Of a stretch of 64,000 nt of DNA, positions 580 to 61,474 are shown piece after piece. Under the pieces are notes generated by a model that was not told the origin of the DNA, did not search any database, and was given only the letters and a program-made list of their open reading frames with translations. The stretch's first letter is position 1. Each line of letters starts with the position of its first letter. A program made the position numbers and the translations under genes. The stretch lies in contig JAEUQT010000002.1 in assembly GCA_016789445.1 (NCBI GenBank), positions 227,857 to 291,856 on the forward strand, in the 5' to 3' direction. This stretch comes from a bacterium (GTDB lineage: Bacteria; Patescibacteriota; Minisyncoccia; Phycocordibacterales; UBA2100).

Positions 580-3507
580 ATGAACTTCACTAACACCATC
601 GGGATGAAGCTTGCGAGCCTCATCACCATGTTCGTCCTCGTCGTGGGAACGCCGGCGACTTCGTTTTTCGTCTACGCAGAAGACGGCGGCGCTGCAACTT
701 CTTCTGGAGGAGATGGAGGTAGCGGAGGTTCGGGTGGCAGCGGTACAAGCGGCGGTGACGCGGGTAGCGGCGCATCGGGTGGCGCTGCGAGTTCATCGTC
801 GAGCGGGGACTCTTCCTCGTCGGGTGGCGATGGTGGCGCAGGCGGTACGGGTGGCGGCGCTACTGATGGTGGCGCAGCAGGTGCAGGTGGCAGCGGTGCA
901 ACCGGCGGCGATGCCGGCTCTACGTCTGATACCGGATCAGCGGATTCCTCAGGTGGTGACGGCGGCGCGGGTGGCGCTGGCGGCGGTGCGACGGATGCAG
1001 GGACCGGTGGCACCGGTGGTACTGGCGCTGATGGCGGCACTGCTAATTCAGAGACTGATTCCGGCGATGCGACGGCAAATGGTGGTGCTGGCGGTGATGG
1101 CGGCACGGGCGGCACGGCAGATGGTGGCGGAAACGATGGTGGAGCCGGCGGTGATGCAGGTGCAGGCGGCGCAGCAGATGCTGAAGGTTCTTCCGCAGAC
1201 GCAGGCGGCGGCGATGGTGGTTCCGGTGGTGATGGTGGGGGCGGGGGTAGCACCATCCATGGACCACTTGACGGCGGCTCGACAGAGATCGACACCGGTA
1301 ATGCTTCTTCTGAATCCATTGCAAACACTGGCGGCAATTCGACGAGCGTGAACACGGCATCGTCTACCGGAACCACCGATGTCGAACTCGACGATCTCTT
1401 TGTCGCGTCTTCGACGGCTTCCTCTACGGCTACGACGGGTGAAGTGAAGGCGGAAGATCCGGACGGCATCTTGGCACGGCTTGGCAATGCAAGCGCACTT
1501 GCGATCCTCATCAACATCTTCAACATCGCGATCAAGGATTCGGTCGGCTCCATCCTTTTCCTTAAGAATCCGGTCGGCAGCGCGCTCGACTTCACCTCGC
1601 AGTTCACGAACATCTTCGGCTCGCTCGCGGGAGTCAACGGTGACTGCTCGTTCATGGGCTGCTCGTCTGAAGAAGCGAGCTTCCGCTTCCTCGGAGACAG
1701 TATCTCCGAGGTCAATAACGAAGCGATCTCCCGTGCAAAATCCGGCGGCTTCGAAGGTTCTTCCGAAGGCGGCACGATCGATGTGAAGACGGGGAACGGT
1801 GATGCGATGTCCGTCATCTGGAACCTCGGTCACCTTACGCTCGCGAACTCTCGTTATCTCGTCATCCTCATGGCGAACCAAGGTGATCTCGATGGCGATG
1901 TGATCCTCCCAGACGGCGAATTCTTCAAGAAGCTCTCTTCGGTGGCGAAGATCAGCGCAGGTTCTACCTACATCGCATCAAGCACGGTCGGCGTTGATAA
2001 CCTTGCAGACAGTAACGCATCATCGGGCAGCAACAGCGCGATCGGTGATGAGACCTCGATCGATACCGGTAACGCGAATGCGCACTCGTCGGCAGGTACG
2101 ATGGCAAACATGGTTGGCGCACCGATGTGCTTCATCATCAACATCGGCGGAAAGTGGAACGGCTCGGTGAAGCGATTGCCGGATACCTTCACGCATGAGC
2201 GAACCTCCTTCGGTGAGATCATCTGTGGCACGGGCGGCGGTGAAGACCGTGCAAACGGTGAACGCATGGAGATCGAGCGCACCAACTATGCCAAGATCGT
2301 GAACAAGGCGATTTCTGAAGCGATCACCGGTGATGTGCATGGCGAGGCGCTCCGTGTGGCACTTGAGACGGGCGATGCGAGCGCATTCAGCCACATCATG
2401 AACCTCATCTCGAGCGACATCATCGGTCAGGACTGGATCTTCGCGAACTTCGCGATCTCCGGTGACTGGGACGGTGACCTCCAGTTCGGACCGGAGCCAG
2501 GAGAGACCGACATCCTCACCGAGATCAATAACCAGATCTCTTCGGGCCGATCCAGCAATTGGAACACCCCTAAGTACTACGGTCCGAATATCAAGGTGAC
2601 GAAAACCGCGAGCGTGGTTGCAGTAGCATCCCCGGCGCAGGTCGAATACCAGATCGTCGTCGACAACCGCGGTTCCGAAGCACACCAGGTGGTGGTGAAC
2701 GACACCATGACGGGTCCGGACGGTGCGGTCATCGGTAAGCAGATGTGGAATCTCGGTACGGTCGCGGAAAAGGAGAAGGTGACCATCAAGTACACCATCG
2801 ACTTCAAGGATGATGCAGCAGCGGGCTACTACACGAATAGCGTGGTGGTCTCCGGTCAGGGTGATATCGCACAAGGTGCGGGCACGCTCACGGCTAAGGA
2901 CGTCATCGAGATCCTTCCGGCAGGCGAACAGCCAGCAGGTCAGTGTGAGCCGCTTCTCACCGAGTACATCCGCCCGTACCGCGCGAATACGCCGGCACAG
3001 GTGAAGGTGCTCCAGGGCTTCCTCAACGAAAGCGAAGGTGAGAATCTCACACTGAGCGGTGTCTATGACGGCAAGACGCAGGCTGCAGTGAAGCGCTTCC
3101 AGCTCAAGCACGCAGATGAGATCCTCACGCCATGGGGAATCACAAGCGCGACCGGTAACGTCTACTACACGACGCAGAAGGCGGTGAACTCGATCAACTG
3201 TAAGGATGACAGCAAGTTCCAGCTCACTGCCGCACAGCAGAATGAGATCAAGTCCTTCAAGACGAAGCTCTTCTCGGCTCCGAAGACGAACATCGGCGAC
3301 CTCCTCAAGATGTACGATGTGGGCCAGAGCAAGGGCGCTCCGACGGCAAAGGGCTTCTTCCTCCTGCCGCCGGCTGCTATCCCGAGCATCTTCGCACCGG
3401 TCTCGAATGAGAATGCAAAGCCGGTCTCGATGATGAGTCTCCCGACCTCGCTCTTCAAGAACTGGCTCCTCTCCGCAGTCCCGCTCGTCGAAGCAGCAGA
3501 ACGTTAA
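580..3507 (+). CDS. Large secreted surface protein: N-terminal signal/TM, a ~250-aa Gly/Ser/Ala/Asp low-complexity region, a DUF11-like beta-domain and a C-terminal PG_binding_1-like peptidoglycan-binding domain
   Basis: 975-aa ORF. Hydrophobic N-terminus LASLITMFVLVVG. Motif VTKTASVVAVASPAQVEYQIVVDNRG...YTNSVVVSG (DUF11-like). Motif VKVLQGFLNESEG..LTLSGVYDGKTQAAVKRFQ (PG-binding). Confidence 0.7.
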   Translation: MNFTNTIGMKLASLITMFVLVVGTPATSFFVYAEDGGAATSSGGDGGSGGSGGSGTSGGDAGSGASGGAASSSSSGDSSSSGGDGGAGGTGGGATDGGAAGAGGSGATGGDAGSTSDTGSADSSGGDGGAGGAGGGATDAGTGGTGGTGADGGTANSETDSGDATANGGAGGDGGTGGTADGGGNDGGAGGDAGAGGAADAEGSSADAGGGDGGSGGDGGGGGSTIHGPLDGGSTEIDTGNASSESIANTGGNSTSVNTASSTGTTDVELDDLFVASSTASSTATTGEVKAEDPDGILARLGNASALAILINIFNIAIKDSVGSILFLKNPVGSALDFTSQFTNIFGSLAGVNGDCSFMGCSSEEASFRFLGDSISEVNNEAISRAKSGGFEGSSEGGTIDVKTGNGDAMSVIWNLGHLTLANSRYLVILMANQGDLDGDVILPDGEFFKKLSSVAKISAGSTYIASSTVGVDNLADSNASSGSNSAIGDETSIDTGNANAHSSAGTMANMVGAPMCFIINIGGKWNGSVKRLPDTFTHERTSFGEIICGTGGGEDRANGERMEIERTNYAKIVNKAISEAITGDVHGEALRVALETGDASAFSHIMNLISSDIIGQDWIFANFAISGDWDGDLQFGPEPGETDILTEINNQISSGRSSNWNTPKYYGPNIKVTKTASVVAVASPAQVEYQIVVDNRGSEAHQVVVNDTMTGPDGAVIGKQMWNLGTVAEKEKVTIKYTIDFKDDAAAGYYTNSVVVSGQGDIAQGAGTLTAKDVIEILPAGEQPAGQCEPLLTEYIRPYRANTPAQVKVLQGFLNESEGENLTLSGVYDGKTQAAVKRFQLKHADEILTPWGITSATGNVYYTTQKAVNSINCKDDSKFQLTAAQQNEIKSFKTKLFSAPKTNIGDLLKMYDVGQSKGAPTAKGFFLLPPAAIPSIFAPVSNENAKPVSMMSLPTSLFKNWLLSAVPLVEAAER

Positions 3508-5076: not shown

Positions 5077-5126
5077 ATATCCACTGGCGTTTCTTTGCCT
5101 TCATGAAGTAGGAGTACAATCCGCTC

Positions 5127-6080
5127 ATGCAGGTGGGTATCGCTCACGCTGTCGGGGGACTCCTTTTCATACTCCTTATCGCAGGCGGCGCCTTCAGTGT
5201 GGGCTCGAAGTGGTCCCATGAGGAGTCGCATACCGCGAGTGCAGCATCCACACAGGAAGAAGAGGGGGCGGTTGCTTCAAGTACGGAAGAAGACAGCAGC
5301 GAAACTGCCGCACAACGCGAACTCTACGACGTCGTGAAGGTTATCGACGGCGACACGATCACGATCAAGCTTGGAGAGAAGAACGAAACGATACGCCTCA
5401 TCGGATTGGATACGCCGGAGACGAATGATCCGCGCACCGGTGTGCAGTGCTTCGGCAAAGAGGCGACGGCGAAATTGAAATCCGTCATCGGCAAACGTGT
5501 TGCGATCGAGAAAGACGCAGGGGAAGGCGAGCGTGATAAGTATGATCGTCTCCTGGCGTATGTGTATTCAGAAGAAGGACTTCTTGTGAATAAATACCTC
5601 ATCGAGCAAGGCTATGCCTACGAATACACCTACGACGACCCGTATAAATACCAGAAGGAATTCAAGGCGGCTCAAGTAGATGCCAAGGCGAAACAGCGAG
5701 GTCTCTGGGCGCCCAATGCGTGTCCTGAGCCCAAGAAAGCTGCTCCAGCGACCAAAGCGTCCGTACAGACCGCTGCAGCTGCGGTGGTGGTTCCTGAGGT
5801 GAAGCCCGAGCCAGAGAACAAGGTCGAGGAAAAGAAGCCAGAACCGGAGCCTGAGAAACCAAAAGAAGAGCCAAAGCAAAAGGAGCCTGAACCAGAACCT
5901 GAAGATGAGGAGGAACAACCCTCAGGCTCGTACACCTGCTCGAGCAATAAATATAACTGCACGCATTTCAAGACGCAGGCAGAGGCGCAGGAGGTTTTCG
6001 ATCAGTGCGGTGGTGCGGACAACGACGTCCACAAGCTCGACAACAATAAAGATGGGGAAGCGTGCGAGAGCCTACCGTAA
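5127..6080 (+). CDS. Secreted thermonuclease (SNase-like) with a PE/K-rich linker and a C-terminal Excalibur Ca-binding domain
   Basis: VIDGDTI...RLIGLDTPET...YDRLLAYV is SNase-like. The terminal DNNKDGEACE matches the Excalibur DxDxDGxxCE motif. Confidence 0.7.
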   Translation: MQVGIAHAVGGLLFILLIAGGAFSVGSKWSHEESHTASAASTQEEEGAVASSTEEDSSETAAQRELYDVVKVIDGDTITIKLGEKNETIRLIGLDTPETNDPRTGVQCFGKEATAKLKSVIGKRVAIEKDAGEGERDKYDRLLAYVYSEEGLLVNKYLIEQGYAYEYTYDDPYKYQKEFKAAQVDAKAKQRGLWAPNACPEPKKAAPATKASVQTAAAAVVVPEVKPEPENKVEEKKPEPEPEKPKEEPKQKEPEPEPEDEEEQPSGSYTCSSNKYNCTHFKTQAEAQEVFDQCGGADNDVHKLDNNKDGEACESLP

Positions 6081-7430
6081 AAGCTTGTCGATAAGCTTCT
6101 CGGTTTCCTCCGGACCGCTGGTCGCGTAGGTCTGGATTCCGGTCGGGATGACGGTGGCGTCATTGCCGCCTTCGTAGAATGCGTCGCCGATGAAGAGCAT
6201 CTCCGATGCCGGTATCTTAAGCTCATTGGAGAGCCATTCGACGCCGTATGCCTTGCTGATGCCTTTGCGCACCATATCGATGGTCGTGCGTCCCGCGATG
6301 AGTACGTCATACGCGGGTGCTTTTTCGCGAAGGAGCTGGGCGAGTCGCGGTCGCTTCGTGAAATCGGGATCCCACGCGGTCTTTTCTTCCTTGGTTGCAT
6401 CATGTCGGAAGGCTGCAAAGGAGACGGAGGTTCCACGATCGATGACGCGGAAATCAGCTTCACCATCGAAAAGGTCGAGCTCGTTGGCGGCTTCGGTGAT
6501 CGTGTTCCTCAGGAATTCACGCTCGTTTTCTTCAAGGGGTATCCCATATTTCTGCTCCCAGCGACCATGTATCCATTCGTCGGCGCGTGAGCCGTTGTCC
6601 GAAAAGACGTAGAAAGGGATACGGAGGTGCTCAGGCATGTGATTCATCACATCGCGCTCGAGCCTGCCGAACGTAGCTCCCGACATGATGGCAACCGGCA
6701 TCGTATCGGCCAAACGGTAGAGCTTTTCCATGACGCGCACTTCCGGCTTCTGGAAGCTCTCGGCGAGCGTATCGTCGAGATCGAAGATGATCGCTTTCGG
6801 TTGCATCGCAGGAAGTGTAGGCGATTTCTGAGCGCCGACTTTGCGCATCTTCCAGACATGGTGGGCGAGCGGAAGCATGGTGATTGCGATGATCGCGAGA
6901 ACGATGTATTCCAGCGAGTGCTCGATATCGGGAATCGCTTCTCCGAGGAAGTATCCCGCAAGCGTAAAGCCGCCTCCCCAGAGCAGTGCACCGAGCACGT
7001 TGTAGAAGAGGAAGGTGGAATAGTTCATGCTTCCTACTCCCGCAAGGATCGGGGCGAACGTACGGACGATAGGAACGAATCGCGCCAGAAGGATGGTCTT
7101 CGCTCCGTGCTCCTCGAAGAATGCTTTGGTCTGGAGGAGGTGTTCCTGCTTCAAGAAGCGCGAATTCTTGCGGCGATAGAGTGCCGGACCGACCCATGCG
7201 CCGAACCAGTAGCCGATGGTGTCTCCCAGTGTCGCGGCAACGATGACCGTCGCAAGTAGTATCCAGATGCTCAGTATCCCTTGCGACGCGAGGAGTCCCG
7301 CGGTGAAGAGCATCGAGCCTCCCGGGAGATAGATCGCGAAGAAGAGGCCTGATTCAGCCAGAATGATGGCGAAAATGCCCGGATAGCTGATGACCTGGAT
7401 GGCTTCGACGAGATCGATTCCGAAAAACAT
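6072..7430 (-). CDS. Fusion protein: N-terminal DedA/SNARE-associated membrane domain plus a C-terminal HAD-IIB phosphatase domain
   Basis: DedA-like 4-5 TM N-half (LLARFVPIVRTFAPILAGV). C-half begins IIFDLDDTL and ends GDAFYEGGNDATV (HAD motifs I and IV). It is a paralogue of the standalone HAD at 14986-15711. Confidence 0.65.
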   Translation of the reverse strand: MFFGIDLVEAIQVISYPGIFAIILAESGLFFAIYLPGGSMLFTAGLLASQGILSIWILLATVIVAATLGDTIGYWFGAWVGPALYRRKNSRFLKQEHLLQTKAFFEEHGAKTILLARFVPIVRTFAPILAGVGSMNYSTFLFYNVLGALLWGGGFTLAGYFLGEAIPDIEHSLEYIVLAIIAITMLPLAHHVWKMRKVGAQKSPTLPAMQPKAIIFDLDDTLAESFQKPEVRVMEKLYRLADTMPVAIMSGATFGRLERDVMNHMPEHLRIPFYVFSDNGSRADEWIHGRWEQKYGIPLEENEREFLRNTITEAANELDLFDGEADFRVIDRGTSVSFAAFRHDATKEEKTAWDPDFTKRPRLAQLLREKAPAYDVLIAGRTTIDMVRKGISKAYGVEWLSNELKIPASEMLFIGDAFYEGGNDATVIPTGIQTYATSGPEETEKLIDKLLR

Positions 7431-57247: not shown

Positions 57248-57544
57248 TCACTTGGATTTCTTGTTGAGAACGTACTTCATCGAACGGCTCATCGGCTTAT
57301 CGGTGCGATGGATGCAGCCGACCCAGCAGCACGGACGACGCATACTACCTTTCATTTTTGAGATCGCTTTCTCGATGCGGATGCCGCGCGTCTCGGCCTT
57401 CTTGCCGGATATCACCCAGCAGATCCATTCATTGCGCGCGAGCGGTGAAATGTCCTGCCAGAGCGCAAGCACTTTGGGAGTCGTCTGAATTGCCTTCCGG
57501 AGATCTGCAGGAAGGGGATGGGCGGTGCCGCCGGAGAGAGTCAT
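57248..57544 (-). CDS. YdeI/OmpD-associated family-like small protein
   Basis: LPADLRKAIQ...VLALWQDISPLARNEWICWV...ETRGIRIEK pattern. Cys-rich tail CCWVGCIHR. Confidence 0.4.
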   Translation of the reverse strand: MTLSGGTAHPLPADLRKAIQTTPKVLALWQDISPLARNEWICWVISGKKAETRGIRIEKAISKMKGSMRRPCCWVGCIHRTDKPMSRSMKYVLNKKSK

Positions 57545-57602
57545 GATTCATTTTACCAATCAGCCGGTAATAAAAGAATTTTAGCTGCAAAAAATCACTA
57601 AC

Positions 57603-58112
57603 CTACGAACGCTTAAATACTAACTGTTGTCGCGTTTCTACGCGAAAATCGTCAACGCTTCGATCTGGTGTAAAAATTGCACTCCCTGACAATTGTTTCC
57701 CTCCATTTGCGACACGTAGAAGAAAGGCTCCCGTACCAGTGCGGTCTTTTCTTTGCGCCGAATATGTAAACAAAAGATAATTGTCACGAATTTCACCTCG
57801 TAAAGTGAAGTAGTTTGAATAAATTTCCTCTTCACCTGCAGTAGTTTTTGCAAAAAAAGTGCCAGTTACCTCATGAGCCTTCTGTTCAAGATCTAGGGAA
57901 ACCTCGAATGTCATGCTCTTGGTCGGGGAAACTTGGGTTGTCTGTTTATGGCTCCAATTGCCATCAACTTTAACCCCTCGATATACAAGGTGTCGAAACC
58001 AAGGGAGTACCACTCGACCAAAGAACACGGTCGCAAGACCTAGAATTACAGCAGTTATGATGCCGCTTGCGATCCCGATTAATATTGAAATCGAGACCTC
58101 CAGGATATTCAT
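57603..58112 (-). CDS. Membrane-anchored orphan protein encoded in a low-GC islet next to tRNA-Asn
   Basis: 169 aa. N-terminal TM ISILIGIASGIITAVILGLATVFF. About 42% GC versus about 58% for the rest of the window. Confidence 0.5.
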   Translation of the reverse strand: MNILEVSISILIGIASGIITAVILGLATVFFGRVVLPWFRHLVYRGVKVDGNWSHKQTTQVSPTKSMTFEVSLDLEQKAHEVTGTFFAKTTAGEEEIYSNYFTLRGEIRDNYLLFTYSAQRKDRTGTGAFLLRVANGGKQLSGSAIFTPDRSVDDFRVETRQQLVFKRS

Positions 58113-58113
58113 G

Positions 58114-58185
58114 CTCCGCGGGTAGGACTCGAACCTACAGCCAACTCGTTAACAGCGAGCTGCTCTACCATTGAGCTACCGCGGA
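58114..58185 (-). tRNA. tRNA-Asn (anticodon GUU)
   Basis: Cloverleaf: acceptor TCCGCGG/CCGCGGA. D-arm GCTC-AATGGTA-GAGC. Anticodon loop CTGTTAA. T-arm GTAGG-TTCGAGT-CCTAC. Discriminator G. No encoded CCA. Confidence 0.9.
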
Positions 58186-58275
58186 ATGTGGCCGTATTCT
58201 AGCGCAGAAATGGCTCTTTGCAATGACAAAACCCCGCAGTAATGCGGGGTTTTGTGGCTCAATATTGTCGCCAAC

Positions 58276-60840
58276 TTACTGGGTGCGAGCGGCGAGGAGC
58301 TGCTGGATCTGAGCGAGGATCACATTGAGCTTCTTGGTGAGCTCGTCGATGAGCGCCTGGTTCGGATTCACACCGCCTGGGCAGACGTTGAGGAGCGCGC
58401 GGGTCTTGGGGCCCGCCATGCCGACCTGTTCGAGGCCGTTAGCCTTCTGGAAGCTGATGACAGCTGCCTGGGTCGCTGGGCCGAAGTTGCCGTTCGCTGC
58501 TGCGGTCATATGTCCCTTTGCGGCGAGTGCCTTCTGGAGTTCCAAGACATCATCACCGCGCATGCCGAACGAGAGATTGCGGGTGAATTGGTAGCAGGTG
58601 CCGGTTGCTGCGCCGAGGACCTGCGGAATAGCTGGTCCGCCACCGCCACCTCCGCCGCCACGGCTGCCACCACCACCGGATGTCGGAGCAGGAGTGCTGC
58701 TACCTCCGCCGGTCGTCTGATCGACACACTGGCCATCCTGGATCACTTTGCCTGACAGGACTTCAGACTGATCGCCATCGATATTCGGGCAGACGTCGGT
58801 CGGGGTCTCTTCTTCGTTGTTGCCGTCATTCTCGCAGACATCGTGTGCACCGACGAAGATGCCTGATGAGCAGGTCGGAGTGATGAATTCGACGTCGACG
58901 CTCACGAACTCATCAAACGTGCCGAGGAATGCGAGGAGGCCTTCGAGCGATGAATACTGTTCGAGGAGTTCATCAATGAGATCTGCGATATTCGACGGGA
59001 ATCCTGCGATGCCGACGAAAATGCTGATGTTCATACACTTATCGACGCCGCCGCCGACGAAGTTCATGCCTTCAGGGCAGTCGGGGGATTCGTAGGTGAT
59101 GAGATTTACCGTCGCGATGTTGCTCGTGGAGGAGCCGTCATTAACCCAGAAGGTGAAGGAATCGCTTCCGAAGAAGTCTTCGTCCGGCGTGTAGGTGAGA
59201 AGAGGTGCGGTGCCGGAGAGTTCACCATCCTGCGGATTGTTGACCGTGAAGACGAACGCTTCGCCGGAGAAGTCGTCCTCGTCTGAGTAATCGAGCGTGA
59301 AGTCTGCCCATCCGTTGACGGGTACGAGAACGGTCATGTCGTTCGCCGTCGGGGTGACGTTCTTCGGTTCGAGATCGTAAATGGTGGTGTCGGTGTTGAT
59401 GCCGCTCTTCGTGACGACCTTCACGTTGTCGAGATAGCCGCTGACGCCTGCATCGCCAAGACTCGTGTCACCTACGTTGATGGCCACGACGCGGATGCTG
59501 GAGCCTGCGCTCAGTGCATTCATGCCAGCCGGGGAAGACGGGCAGGTGAATGGCGATGCTTGGCCGCCGGTGCGCGTCGTTACCGGATAGCTCTGCGTCG
59601 GATCGAAGGTGACCGTCGTGAACGCACCGGTCGAGCCTGTGGTCGGGACGACGTTGTAGCGGCAGTCGTAGAATTTCGTCGAAGACGAGACGCCGAAGTT
59701 GGCATACACATTCATGTAGAACTGCTCTTCGACATCCGCGCTCGGAGCGGCGATCTTGAAGTCGTACGAGATGCTGCCGATCTCCGAGATCTTCTTCAGA
59801 AGAAACAGTTCGCCGATGAACTTATTGCTTGCCGTCGTGCTCGAGATGGGGGAGACGAAGAGGCTGCCGGTGCCGATGGATGCCGCACCGGTGTTGAAGG
59901 CGAACGGCGATGCGGTCGAAGTGTCGCGGTTGAACATCCAGCCGAGGGCGTTCTCTGCCGCGGAAGTGTTGCCGGAGATTTTCACCGTGTCGGACGAATT
60001 GACCGGCGTAGCGGTCGATGAGGTCAGAGTAATGTCATCAATGAGGAAGCCGACGCCGAGGGTCGCAGGAGCAGCGGTACCGCCCGCACGGAAGAGCAGG
60101 GAATCGACGGTGCGACTCTCATCAGCGAGCGACGGATTCGATTCGTTATCGAAGCGGAAGTAGTTCTCCCAGGTCGTTCCCGTATGGACAAGGTTGCCGT
60201 CGATGTAGATCTTCACGATGTCGTTCGACGGACCATCGACGAAATCGATGACGAATTTCGCCGTGTGTGCGGACTCGCGCGAGAGATCGTTTGCTACGAG
60301 GGTCGGCGTAAAGACCGCTGGGTCGATGACGCTCTGGACGTCGTAGAAATTGACATCGATACCTTCTGCCGTGTCAGCGAAGCTGAGATAACTCATGCGC
60401 GCGCCGTCGCCGCGGTCGGGAGAGACCGAGAGAAAGAGTCCCGGCTGATAGGTGGTGGTTGCCGCTTTGATCTTGAACTCGGCTTCAAAGTGGTTCTGGC
60501 GTGCGCCGCCGGATTGGCCGCCGCTCACAGCCTGTGCATCACCCGCTTCGTCAGTAAGCGAGGTGGTGAAGGTCTGATCGCCGAAACTGCCGCTGGTTAC
60601 GGCATTCGAGAAACGGAGCGACTTGGAGCCTGAGAGTACCGAGGATTCGACGACTTCGACATCGTAGCTACCGGTCTTCGTCCAGCCGTTTTGGCCGTTG
60701 ATGGCGCCGGTTGCGTAGCTTTCGAAATCAATGCTAAGAGTGTCAGCCTCGACTAAAAGCGGAGCGAATGCAAAGCTGGCGCTGATAACGAGCGACATGA
60801 CGAAGAGCGTCAGGGCGCGGGAGTTCTTTACGAGATCCAT
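58276..60840 (-). CDS. Large secreted protein (854 aa): N-terminal beta-rich region, cadherin-like/VCBS-type domain, Cys-rich module, poly-Gly linker and a C-terminal PG_binding_1 domain
   Basis: Signal peptide. DYSDEDDFSGEAFVFTVNNPQDGELSG...FTFWVNDGSSTSNIATVNLI (cadherin-like). GGGGSRGGGGGGGG. DDVLELQKALAAKGHMT...GPATQAAVISFQ (PG-binding). Confidence 0.75.
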   Translation of the reverse strand: MDLVKNSRALTLFVMSLVISASFAFAPLLVEADTLSIDFESYATGAINGQNGWTKTGSYDVEVVESSVLSGSKSLRFSNAVTSGSFGDQTFTTSLTDEAGDAQAVSGGQSGGARQNHFEAEFKIKAATTTYQPGLFLSVSPDRGDGARMSYLSFADTAEGIDVNFYDVQSVIDPAVFTPTLVANDLSRESAHTAKFVIDFVDGPSNDIVKIYIDGNLVHTGTTWENYFRFDNESNPSLADESRTVDSLLFRAGGTAAPATLGVGFLIDDITLTSSTATPVNSSDTVKISGNTSAAENALGWMFNRDTSTASPFAFNTGAASIGTGSLFVSPISSTTASNKFIGELFLLKKISEIGSISYDFKIAAPSADVEEQFYMNVYANFGVSSSTKFYDCRYNVVPTTGSTGAFTTVTFDPTQSYPVTTRTGGQASPFTCPSSPAGMNALSAGSSIRVVAINVGDTSLGDAGVSGYLDNVKVVTKSGINTDTTIYDLEPKNVTPTANDMTVLVPVNGWADFTLDYSDEDDFSGEAFVFTVNNPQDGELSGTAPLLTYTPDEDFFGSDSFTFWVNDGSSTSNIATVNLITYESPDCPEGMNFVGGGVDKCMNISIFVGIAGFPSNIADLIDELLEQYSSLEGLLAFLGTFDEFVSVDVEFITPTCSSGIFVGAHDVCENDGNNEEETPTDVCPNIDGDQSEVLSGKVIQDGQCVDQTTGGGSSTPAPTSGGGGSRGGGGGGGGPAIPQVLGAATGTCYQFTRNLSFGMRGDDVLELQKALAAKGHMTAAANGNFGPATQAAVISFQKANGLEQVGMAGPKTRALLNVCPGGVNPNQALIDELTKKLNVILAQIQQLLAARTQ

Positions 60841-61114
60841 AGTATGTTTTCTTATTAAGATTCCCCAAATCCATTAAAGAAAGAGCTAAAACGAAACGAT
60901 TCTTGCCTAATGACAAGAATCGTTTCTGAGCTTTCGCTCGGACCCCGTAGTTCTACAACTTTGAGAGGAAAGGGCAATGCTGGGTTATGTTCCGAAATGA
61001 TTATTTACATTTCGCAAATTGTGTGGCAAAGAAATAACCCCAGACAAGCATGTTCAGGAAAAACACATCAGGTGCAGGTATATACTAGATGATTATGACT
61101 AACACTCCTTCCGT

Positions 61115-61474
61115 ATGGATCTGAGAATAAAAACGAGCGATTACGAGATGCCACGTGAGGTCGCCGACTACCTCGATGACAAGATCGATTCCATACAGAA
61201 ACTGCTCGCCGCCGATGCGGAGACCGCTCGTTGCGAAGTGGAGCTTGGGCGGCATGTCGGAAGCTCACAGCAAGGCGATGTATGGCGCGCGGAAATCATC
61301 GTGCATCGCAACGGCCAGCGGCATGTCGCCTCGGCGACCGGGGAAAGCATCAACGCAGCCATTGATGTAGCGAAGGATGAGATCCTCCAGCAACTTCGCA
61401 AGAGCAAGGGAAGAAGCTTTGCGATGGCGAGAAGGATGGCAGGTCGTCTCAAGAGGATGGCACGCTGGGCATAA
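61115..61474 (+). CDS. hpf: Ribosome hibernation promoting factor / RaiA (short form)
   Basis: Aligns with E. coli HPF (M.L.I...E....L.EY...K...L...F; VNGG-like core; AIDxxxDxLxxQLxKxK). Confidence 0.8.
   Translation: MDLRIKTSDYEMPREVADYLDDKIDSIQKLLAADAETARCEVELGRHVGSSQQGDVWRAEIIVHRNGQRHVASATGESINAAIDVAKDEILQQLRKSKGRSFAMARRMAGRLKRMARWA

Follow-up and report, generated by a model that had tools for sequence, protein, structure and literature searches.

The effectors Cap15 of the cyclic oligonucleotide-based antiphage signalling system (CBASS), OptE of Panoptes and PanE of PanDA, grouped as S-2TMbeta, carry transmembrane (TM) helices joined to a barrel that binds a cyclic dinucleotide; when they oligomerise the inner membrane is disrupted, a process that is either set off or restrained by the ligand (PMC10419184, PMC12657218, bioRxiv 10.64898/2026.08.10.743972). 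Here we describe a gene whose product may be a remote, one-helix relative of these proteins. It lies in a stretch of 64,000 nucleotides (nt), referred to below as the window, from contig JAEUQT010000002.1 (positions 227,857 to 291,856) of the Patescibacteriota assembly GCA_016789445.1, and it is an open reading frame (ORF) of 169 amino acids (aa) at 57603..58112 on the reverse strand, which the ORF list and a protein look-up equate with NCBI MBL8158538.1 ('bacterium'). The ORF starts directly behind the 3' end of a tRNA-Asn gene. Taking the evidence together, we consider it somewhat more probable than its opposite that this is a foreign Cap15-like gene at tRNA-Asn, co-transcribed with the tRNA and translated without a leader, and that the junction of the two genes is the bacterial attachment site (attB) of at least two mobile elements.

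The protein had been taken for an orphan, a view that the homologue searches contradict: phmmer against 1.84 billion cluster representatives gave 669 matches at E<=1e-3 and 224 at E<=1e-10, and the family is thus large, widespread and unnamed. Nearly all its members have 155-180 aa, and the longer ones, in which fused domains were sought, add only charged tails. A word-indexed search returned nothing apart from MBL8158538.1 itself and one relative at 59-60% identity, and identical copies of the protein are encoded by 10 contigs from several samples. In an alignment of 122 sequences W53 is invariant, while G13, P37, Y44, G46, G51, Q77, G84, G106, G138 and G143 are nearly so. None of the Pfam, NCBIfam and PHROG models rose above noise with the ORF or with the 122 family members, the NCBIfam matches being noise of the TM type, and a sequence search of the PDB with the family profile gave nothing meaningful. 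Defence-system models were likewise at noise level with the ORF; the CBASS '2TM effector' models of PADLOC matched a few family members weakly (E 3e-4 to 4e-3).

AlphaFold, run with the family alignment, modelled the full protein at a predicted local distance difference test (pLDDT) score of 95.6 as one helix (residues 3-43) followed by eight antiparallel strands (51-168), in agreement with the single N-terminal TM helix and soluble domain read from the sequence in the original prediction. A model of the barrel alone agreed with the full one (pLDDT 93.7), with eight strands according to DSSP. The helix, encoded by codons 3-43 (57984..58106, reverse strand), is continuous, with pLDDT >=95; it has a single hydrophobic span (about residues 6-31) carrying a conserved G13xxxG17 motif, and its basic juxtamembrane part ends in a PW(F/Y) motif. 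Codons 51-168 (57609..57962, reverse strand) encode the predicted eight-stranded up-and-down beta-barrel, assigned from the AlphaFold model, the family alignment and the Foldseek likeness to avidins. The N-terminus is short and acidic and the stretch after the TM span is basic (R33, R40, H41, R45 and K48), and by the positive-inside rule the topology is probably N-out, C-in, with a cytoplasmic barrel. The single TM helix with its GxxxG-type motif and the basic juxtamembrane helix would together hold the barrel in the cytoplasm.

To compare this family with the S-2TMbeta effectors we used the OptE sequence given in the supplement of the Panoptes paper (PMC12657218), which is a protein of PF18153, Cap15_CD_rec (70.5 bits). 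Homologues of OptE were collected, 30 of which were aligned for hhalign, and 120 OptE-family proteins were scored with the hidden Markov model (HMM) of the new family. Alignment against alignment, hhalign gave a probability of 83.6% (E 8e-6), the reversed decoy giving 3%, and placed the single TM helix of the family on TM2 of OptE with the G-x-W and h-x-Q motifs in register. With the family HMM the scores of the 120 OptE-family proteins had a maximum of 22.5 bits and a median of 8.5, compared with maxima of 4.7-6.6 bits for reversed or shuffled decoys, and when the TM region was removed the maximum was still 14.9 bits. As a scale for these values, the profile of OptE itself scores the crystallised Cap15 sequence (7N34) at 23.8 bits only. 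In a Foldseek search of BFVD an S-2TMbeta protein ranked eighth, with a probability of 0.99.

The likeness also includes size and layout. The S-2TMbeta proteins are likewise small, of about 160-200 aa, and in both groups an N-terminal TM module is directly fused to a C-terminal beta-barrel, predicted to be cytoplasmic in our case; the motifs that fall in register are (D/G)-h-x-G-x-W in strand 1, h-x-h-x-Q in strand 2 and L-x-G near strand 7. With moderate confidence, these sequence comparisons suggest that the family is a remote one-helix relative of the S-2TMbeta effectors. That it works like Cap15 or OptE is plausible by analogy; in that case the ligand-binding barrel would control TM oligomerisation and membrane disruption.

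Several observations weigh against this link, and membership of S-2TMbeta is not established. The core aligned by hhalign has only 45 columns. PF18153, applied at its gathering score or at E<=0.01, matches neither the ORF nor any of the 122 family members, and Cap15 (7N34/7N35) falls outside the top 50 Foldseek matches in the PDB. The ORF protein has one TM helix where S-2TMbeta proteins have two, and it is encoded by a stand-alone gene in Paceibacterota, with no adjacent CD-NTase, mCpol or mDAC: such a nucleotide-cyclase neighbour was sought in the window and in loci L001, L014, L015 and L026 and was found in none of them. The guess in the original prediction that the protein is a toxin or defence effector gains moderate support from the remote profile link to Cap15/OptE.

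The only cyclase gene seen near any member of the family encodes a class III adenylate/guanylate cyclase domain and stands two genes upstream of a member on a Rhizobium leguminosarum plasmid (NZ_CP030764.1, 608484-611779; locus L029, 3110-6405).

The main rival to the Cap15/OptE analogy is a calycin-like ligand-binding role, in which the protein would be neither a toxin nor part of a defence system; a membrane-tethered calycin-type barrel would then serve housekeeping or scavenging, and the likeness to Cap15/OptE would be convergent or too remote. Geometry also speaks for this role and against the effector link, since the best matches of the model in the PDB are avidins (template-modelling scores of 0.62-0.71 at a root-mean-square deviation of about 4 A), with fatty-acid-binding proteins (FABPs), nitrophorins, nitrobindin and the membrane-tethered VtrC/ToxS coming next; all PDB matches had E>6e-3 and identities of 8-18%. 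Calycin barrels (avidin/streptavidin, lipocalins, FABPs, nitrobindin) share the up-and-down architecture, the number of eight strands applying to avidin and lipocalin and ten to FABP, and VtrC/ToxS resembles the ORF protein in having one N-terminal TM helix and a ligand-binding barrel. However, the barrel of VtrC/ToxS is periplasmic and is paired with a ToxR-like partner, whereas the barrel described here is predicted to be cytoplasmic and has no partner gene. A role outside defence would agree with the absence of a cyclase or other defence partner from five subfamily loci, with the silence of the defence-system models and with the fixation of the gene in its species (see below). On the other side stands the OptE profile signal, which is in register and exceeds the decoys even without the TM region, together with the fusion of a GxxxG-type TM helix to a predicted cytoplasmic barrel, an architecture of Cap15 and OptE unlike that of secreted calycins. 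The surroundings of other family members point away from housekeeping too: one lies in the accessory region of a filamentous inovirus, Vibrio phage 10N.286.49.B11_PE002 (PQ189335.1; L028, 5104-6835), between a DUF2726 protein and a P-loop NTPase, one is beside a HigBA-like pair, another is downstream of an RHS toxin locus, and members are repeatedly foreign in composition. Weighing both sides, we hold the calycin role to be possible and on balance doubtful.

The composition of the gene argues for a foreign origin, whichever function it has. The 500-nt bin 57501-58000 has the lowest GC content of the window, 0.434 against about 0.56, and 200-nt windows at the islet range from 0.415 to 0.465. 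The low-GC tract covers 57545-58112 (568 nt), that is the ORF, its sole gene, plus an AT-rich spacer of 58 nt (57545..57602, reverse strand) from the ORF stop to the next start, which closes the tract on its far side and contains no hairpin resembling a terminator. Beyond it the OmdA/YdeI-family gene (57248..57544, reverse strand; PF13376, E 8e-16) is the first gene of native composition and marks the boundary. An islet of low GC flush with the tRNA-Asn 3' end, as first noticed, is thus borne out, and composition at the codon level, a check suggested with it, also sets it apart: the ORF has a GC of 0.435 and a GC at third codon positions (GC3) of 0.371. Among 53 long window ORFs, whose means are 0.562+/-0.028 and 0.667+/-0.073, it is the extreme low in both (z about -4.5 and -4.1). 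A GC as low as that of the ORF occurs in just 0.14% of 510-nt windows.

The homologues lead to a similar conclusion. The closest relatives all come from Patescibacteria-type contigs. The nearest one (P0002, 59-60% identity) belongs to a 32% GC genome in which its composition is native (0.316 vs 0.320), and it lies between Dabb and DinB-like genes with no adjacent tRNA. It is followed by HYC34131.1 of Candidatus Paceibacterota (P0003, locus L026, 53% identity) and by two relatives at 50% identity, one of native composition in a Candidatus Paceibacterota metagenome-assembled genome (L015, JBAYJU010000010.1) and one (P0153, L014) whose gene has a GC of 0.349 against 0.462 in its host, a genome of roughly 46% GC. 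Among 12 loci for which DNA was available, five (the window, L014, L026, L022 and the Rhizobium plasmid mentioned above, with 0.443 vs 0.582) have a family member whose GC lies 7-18 points under that of its flanks, and in no locus is it above them. These relatives in lower-GC genomes, where the gene has native composition, and the repeated AT-richness of members relative to their hosts, often beside tRNA genes, uphold the proposal of horizontal acquisition, and from the sequence data we regard a foreign, horizontally acquired origin of the ORF as well supported; the gene would have come from a low-GC Paceibacterota gene pool. Further scans for relatives yielded two metagenome loci and one genome locus, a tblastn search of plasmids and phages yielded only three distant members, and none was found in 2.9 million viral contigs.

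One of the low-GC loci, L022 (Logan SRR28415866_13550), has a 1.4-kb islet of 30-42% GC (5100-6550) in a genome of roughly 67% GC (66-73%); it comprises an 86-aa gene and the family member P0120 and ends about 150 nt before a tRNA-Pro(GGG), where the contig stops.

If the gene were instead native and inherited vertically, the tRNA-Asn/ORF pair would be ancestral in the clade and the low GC intrinsic, for example by selection for an unstructured AT-rich leaderless mRNA. There are reasons to consider this: L014 has the flush junction too, with HPF, fmt and def also in its neighbourhood; the gene lies below host GC in several unrelated hosts, as an intrinsic bias could produce; and in the species of the window the ORF is fixed, being present in 11 of 11 contigs with an identical OmdA protein. 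Among these contigs no empty site, with OmdA and without the ORF, was found, a point against the acquisition we favour, and the comparison of close relatives that had been suggested for the islet accordingly revealed no presence/absence polymorphism. Nevertheless, the GC3 of the ORF is four standard deviations below that of the window genes, the genes downstream of it differ completely between the window and L014, and the closest homologue sits in a 32% GC genome in a different context. The ORFs of the window and of L014 share 50% identity, more than the fmt (40%) or HPF (29%) proteins of the two genomes, which fits transfer after the split of the lineages better than co-descent. In L001, L015, L025, L038 and L040 the composition of the gene equals that of its host, which argues against an intrinsic low-GC bias, and in L014, the only other genome with the flush arrangement, the gene is also foreign in composition, so that the finding named in the original prediction as refuting it, an orthologue of native composition at this position, did not turn up. 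Vertical inheritance of a native gene therefore appears improbable to us.

We then considered the connection with tRNA 3' ends. The tRNA-Asn(GUU) gene at 58114..58185 (reverse strand; Rfam RF00005, 73.2 bits; 58113-58185 according to ARAGORN) is the sole tRNA of the window found by ARAGORN; its discriminator is G58114 and CCA is not encoded. By the sequence and the ends given by ARAGORN and Rfam, a single base, C58113 (reverse strand), separates the discriminator from the ATG of the ORF. This ATG has no alternative in-frame ATG, GTG or TTG upstream, and the residues S9, G13, I14, G17, I18, T20 and L24 are invariant among the four closest homologues; being the only in-frame start before a conserved N-terminus, the flush ATG should be the true start. 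Contig L014 begins inside a tRNA: its first 39 nt correspond to the anticodon stem, the T-arm and the 3' half of the acceptor, ending in ...GCAGGTTCGATCCCTGCCGGGGGAGC, and the ATG follows directly. The junction GGAGC|ATG is common to the window and L014 although the acceptor stems differ.

In two further genomes sequence resembling the tRNA 3' end precedes the homologue. The 26 nt that precede the ATG in L015 agree with the 3' end of the window tRNA-Asn at 17 positions in register (P about 5e-5), and no tRNA is there; L026 has a gapped copy of the tRNA-Asn 3' end, 31 nt ahead of its ATG (P<3e-4). ARAGORN and Rfam, with which a pseudo-tRNA was looked for before the ORF in L015, L006 and L013, reported none; only the 3' part is similar. 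A tRNA occurs within 160 nt of the family gene in 4 of 12 loci, where our own rough estimate of the chance value is about 2% for a gene picked at random from a genome of 1 Mb and about 45 tRNAs.

The locus therefore compares with tRNA-linked genomic islets in several respects: DNA of foreign composition is flush with a tRNA 3' end at a site used by mobile elements (see below), and decayed tRNA-3'-like sequence precedes homologues in other genomes. It differs from them in comprising one 510-nt gene, with no integrase, no repeat and no presence/absence polymorphism. Arrival of the gene at the tRNA-Asn 3' end by site-specific recombination at that end is the most likely course that we can propose. 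Against it, no integrase gene is present in the 568-nt tract and no serine-integrase homologue anywhere in the window (the ORF list, the family scans and a homologue search of the window agree with the original prediction in this), and a direct repeat bounding the islet, sought by local alignment of the tRNA 3' end with the DNA beyond the ORF, was not significant (P about 0.7 against random segments or shuffles). The 7-nt aacctac match pointed out earlier does exist (57600-57606 vs 58132-58138); as an attachment-site repeat it is at chance level. Bounding repeats were also non-significant in L014, L015 and L026, and the value for L001 (P 0.009-0.03) is lost over ten tests. Since there is no bounding repeat, no integrase and no empty site, the route of arrival is unproven. 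Two more points count against the explanation we favour: the tRNA of L014 is only probably an Asn tRNA, as judged from U36, G73 and the short variable loop, its anticodon being lost at the contig end, and distant members have ordinary upstream regions, e.g. with AGGAGG in L022.

The Logan contigs L012 and L014 both break inside the tRNA just upstream of the ORF. Such breaks would fit branching of the assembly graph caused by alternative junction sequences in the sampled populations.

Alternative junctions were in fact found. The contigs L006, L016 and L019 (SRR17233805, SRR17233806) and L013 (SRR32548954) carry an identical ORF and identical downstream genes with different DNA upstream, and in all of them the switch falls exactly at GGAGC|ATG, between the tRNA and the ORF. 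The element in L016 (1-10000, the same as in L006 and L019; Logan SRR17233805_22692 and SRR17233806_6475) extends over at least 10 kb, with a GC of 0.459 against 0.56 in the host, and encodes a large serine integrase of 573 aa (1415-3136, reverse strand) with Resolvase, Recombinase and Zn_ribbon_recom domains (phrog_95 'integrase', E 8e-52), as well as a bPH_2 protein, a DUF5659 protein and a 1249-aa protein with no family match. L013 (Logan SRR32548954_55909) represents a second element type with a DUF1508-like/phrog_1422 gene; between this gene and the ORF junction it has an iteron-like array (405-770) of about eight units of roughly 45 nt, each with TTTAATTCG-nnn-TAATTCG.

The arms of both elements, L016 and L013, are similar to the end of the tRNA, with an outer motif, (T/C)AGGTTC, whose distance from GGAGC is 18 nt in these arms and 13 nt in the tRNA. 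Large serine integrases have the zinc-ribbon-domain (ZD) motif of the phage attachment site (attP) 5 bp farther out than that of attB (PMC3783163). We therefore read the junctions in L016 and L013 as hybrids of the attR type, with a putative attB made up of the 3' end of the tRNA gene and the opening codons of the ORF; it would cover 58088..58138 (reverse strand), with a B arm at 58113-58138 (the last 26 nt of the tRNA region) and a B' arm of about the first 25 nt of the ORF. The site shares with those of large serine integrases (A118/LI, Bxb1, phiC31 type) the hybrid junction, the few shared bases and the 5-bp offset of the motif, and differs in that attB straddles the 3' end of a tRNA and the start codon of a protein gene. 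The junction would thus serve as attB of at least two mobile elements, one of them with a serine integrase, and insertion would part the ORF from the tRNA. The other, tRNA-side junction was sought by an exact-match look-up of the neighbouring 854-aa gene product, with no match, and no tRNA-Asn lies within 10 kb on the element side.

It might be asked whether the ORF is simply cargo, or a remnant, of the serine-integrase element. The GC of the L016 element (0.459) is near that of the ORF (0.435), the elements abut the ORF in L016/L019 and in L013, and the tRNA-like remnants upstream of the homologues in L015 and L026 would fit a cargo gene close to an attachment site. However, in the lysogen-type contigs the ORF keeps its chromosomal neighbours over 10 kb and it is the tRNA side that is replaced; because the ORF is on the chromosomal side and the contigs run through it unbroken, as a single copy, it is not cargo of these elements. 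A search by blastn and tblastn for the element elsewhere in the 64-kb window, as expected if the ORF were the first gene of a large prophage, found nothing, no relative of the ORF turned up in the 2.9 million viral contigs, and no flanking repeat is detectable. We judge this origin quite unlikely, more so than vertical inheritance. The idea of a horizontally acquired cargo gene or remnant thus holds in its first half, the gene being foreign at synonymous sites and the tRNA 3' end an active integration site in the species, and fails in its second, as the elements found there leave the gene on the chromosomal flank. Finally, the ORF might be no gene at all and the low-GC tract might serve an OmdA operon as promoter or as a spacer with a regulatory role, for which AT-rich intergenic promoter regions such as 60841-61114 in the window could be quoted. 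This reading is refuted: the ORF has homologues in the hundreds that share conserved motifs, its fold is predicted with very high confidence, and conservation of the N-terminus fixes the start codon.

The layout of the junction also has consequences for expression. The gap that separates the tRNA from the ATG is too short for a promoter or a ribosome-binding site, so the ORF would be transcribed from the tRNA promoter. A sigma-70-like match, TTGCAA-16-TAGAAT (58196..58223, reverse strand), found by a consensus scan on pattern only, ends 10 nt before the tRNA 5' end, and the ORF has no other candidate promoter. Upstream of it a GC-rich hairpin flanked by an A-run and a T-run (AAAACCCCGCATTACTGCGGGGTTTT; 58228..58253, reverse strand), read from the sequence and not reported by the terminator scan, is likely to be the terminator of the upstream 854-aa gene and to separate that gene from the tRNA unit. 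The same scan reported no terminator-like site between the tRNA, the ORF and OmdA.

RNase Z cuts tRNA precursors that lack CCA on the 3' side of the discriminator. As this tRNA has no encoded CCA, 3' maturation should cut after G73, and an RNase Z-type cut there would free a CAUG... mRNA with a one-base leader (C58113) from the co-transcript of tRNA-Asn and ORF; this mRNA would be translated effectively leaderless. No obvious Shine-Dalgarno sequence was seen at the starts of ten inspected window genes, the ORF included (e.g. 57544, 57033, 54899, 60840, 61115 and 62690). Co-transcription, cleavage and leaderless translation are all deduced from the logic of the layout, a reliance that weighs against the explanation we favour. 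The arrangement recalls the tRNA-punctuated mRNAs of mitochondria and the leaderless mRNAs of bacteria and archaea, with the AUG (58112-58110) coming directly after the tRNA, its discriminator G (58114) and the C (58113); it differs from mitochondrial punctuation in concerning a single gene on a bacterial chromosome, known from sequence layout. We know of no described bacterial case of such a tRNA/start-codon layout, and a search of the literature on leaderless mRNAs that arise in bacteria by processing of a tRNA gave no direct precedent.

Between the end of the L016 element and the ORF there is no sigma-70-like match, and integration may therefore silence the ORF, which is speculative. A fuller picture, unlikely in our judgement, would have the protein as a stand-alone one-helix sensor-effector of the Cap15/OptE kind made only as the 3' trailer of tRNA-Asn, leaderless, with the tRNA end and first codons as attB, so that a prophage disconnects its promoter; having no cyclase of its own, it could monitor a housekeeping nucleotide or one supplied in trans, as OptE and PanE monitor decoys.

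What takes this locus beyond an ordinary tRNA-side islet is the conserved flush junction of tRNA and start codon together with its use as a serine-integrase attB. The abutment is kept across two genomes whose fmt is only 40% identical, and it offers a testable bacterial mRNA with a tRNA-processed 5' end; the site likewise offers a natural pair of attB and attP arm for an uncharacterised serine integrase of a candidate-phylum bacterium. Should the link to Cap15/OptE be true, the family would be a large unannotated one, with at least 669 clusters at 50% identity and no Pfam, NCBIfam, PHROG or PADLOC model, and its one-helix TM-barrel, often without a signalling partner, would extend small membrane effectors into the Patescibacteria, whose defence systems are poorly charted. 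Should it be false, the islet would be an ordinary single-gene foreign one by a tRNA.

The neighbours of the ORF in the window are the tRNA-Asn, the 854-aa Big_9/PG_binding protein, OmdA and proteins with no assignment. A TAAAAT hexamer stands 5 nt ahead of the ATG of OmdA, and judged from this hexamer OmdA could be leaderless too. In L015 a LOOT RNA (3125-3242; RF03000, 76.5 bits with a gathering score of 46.4) lies about 1.7 kb upstream of the homologue. The window has a second low-GC patch, at 60700-61200 (0.41-0.47), which is a divergent intergenic region of 274 nt (60841-61114) separating the 854-aa Big_9/PG_binding gene (start 60840, reverse strand) from a hibernation-factor gene (start 61115, forward strand) and is probably an ordinary promoter region.

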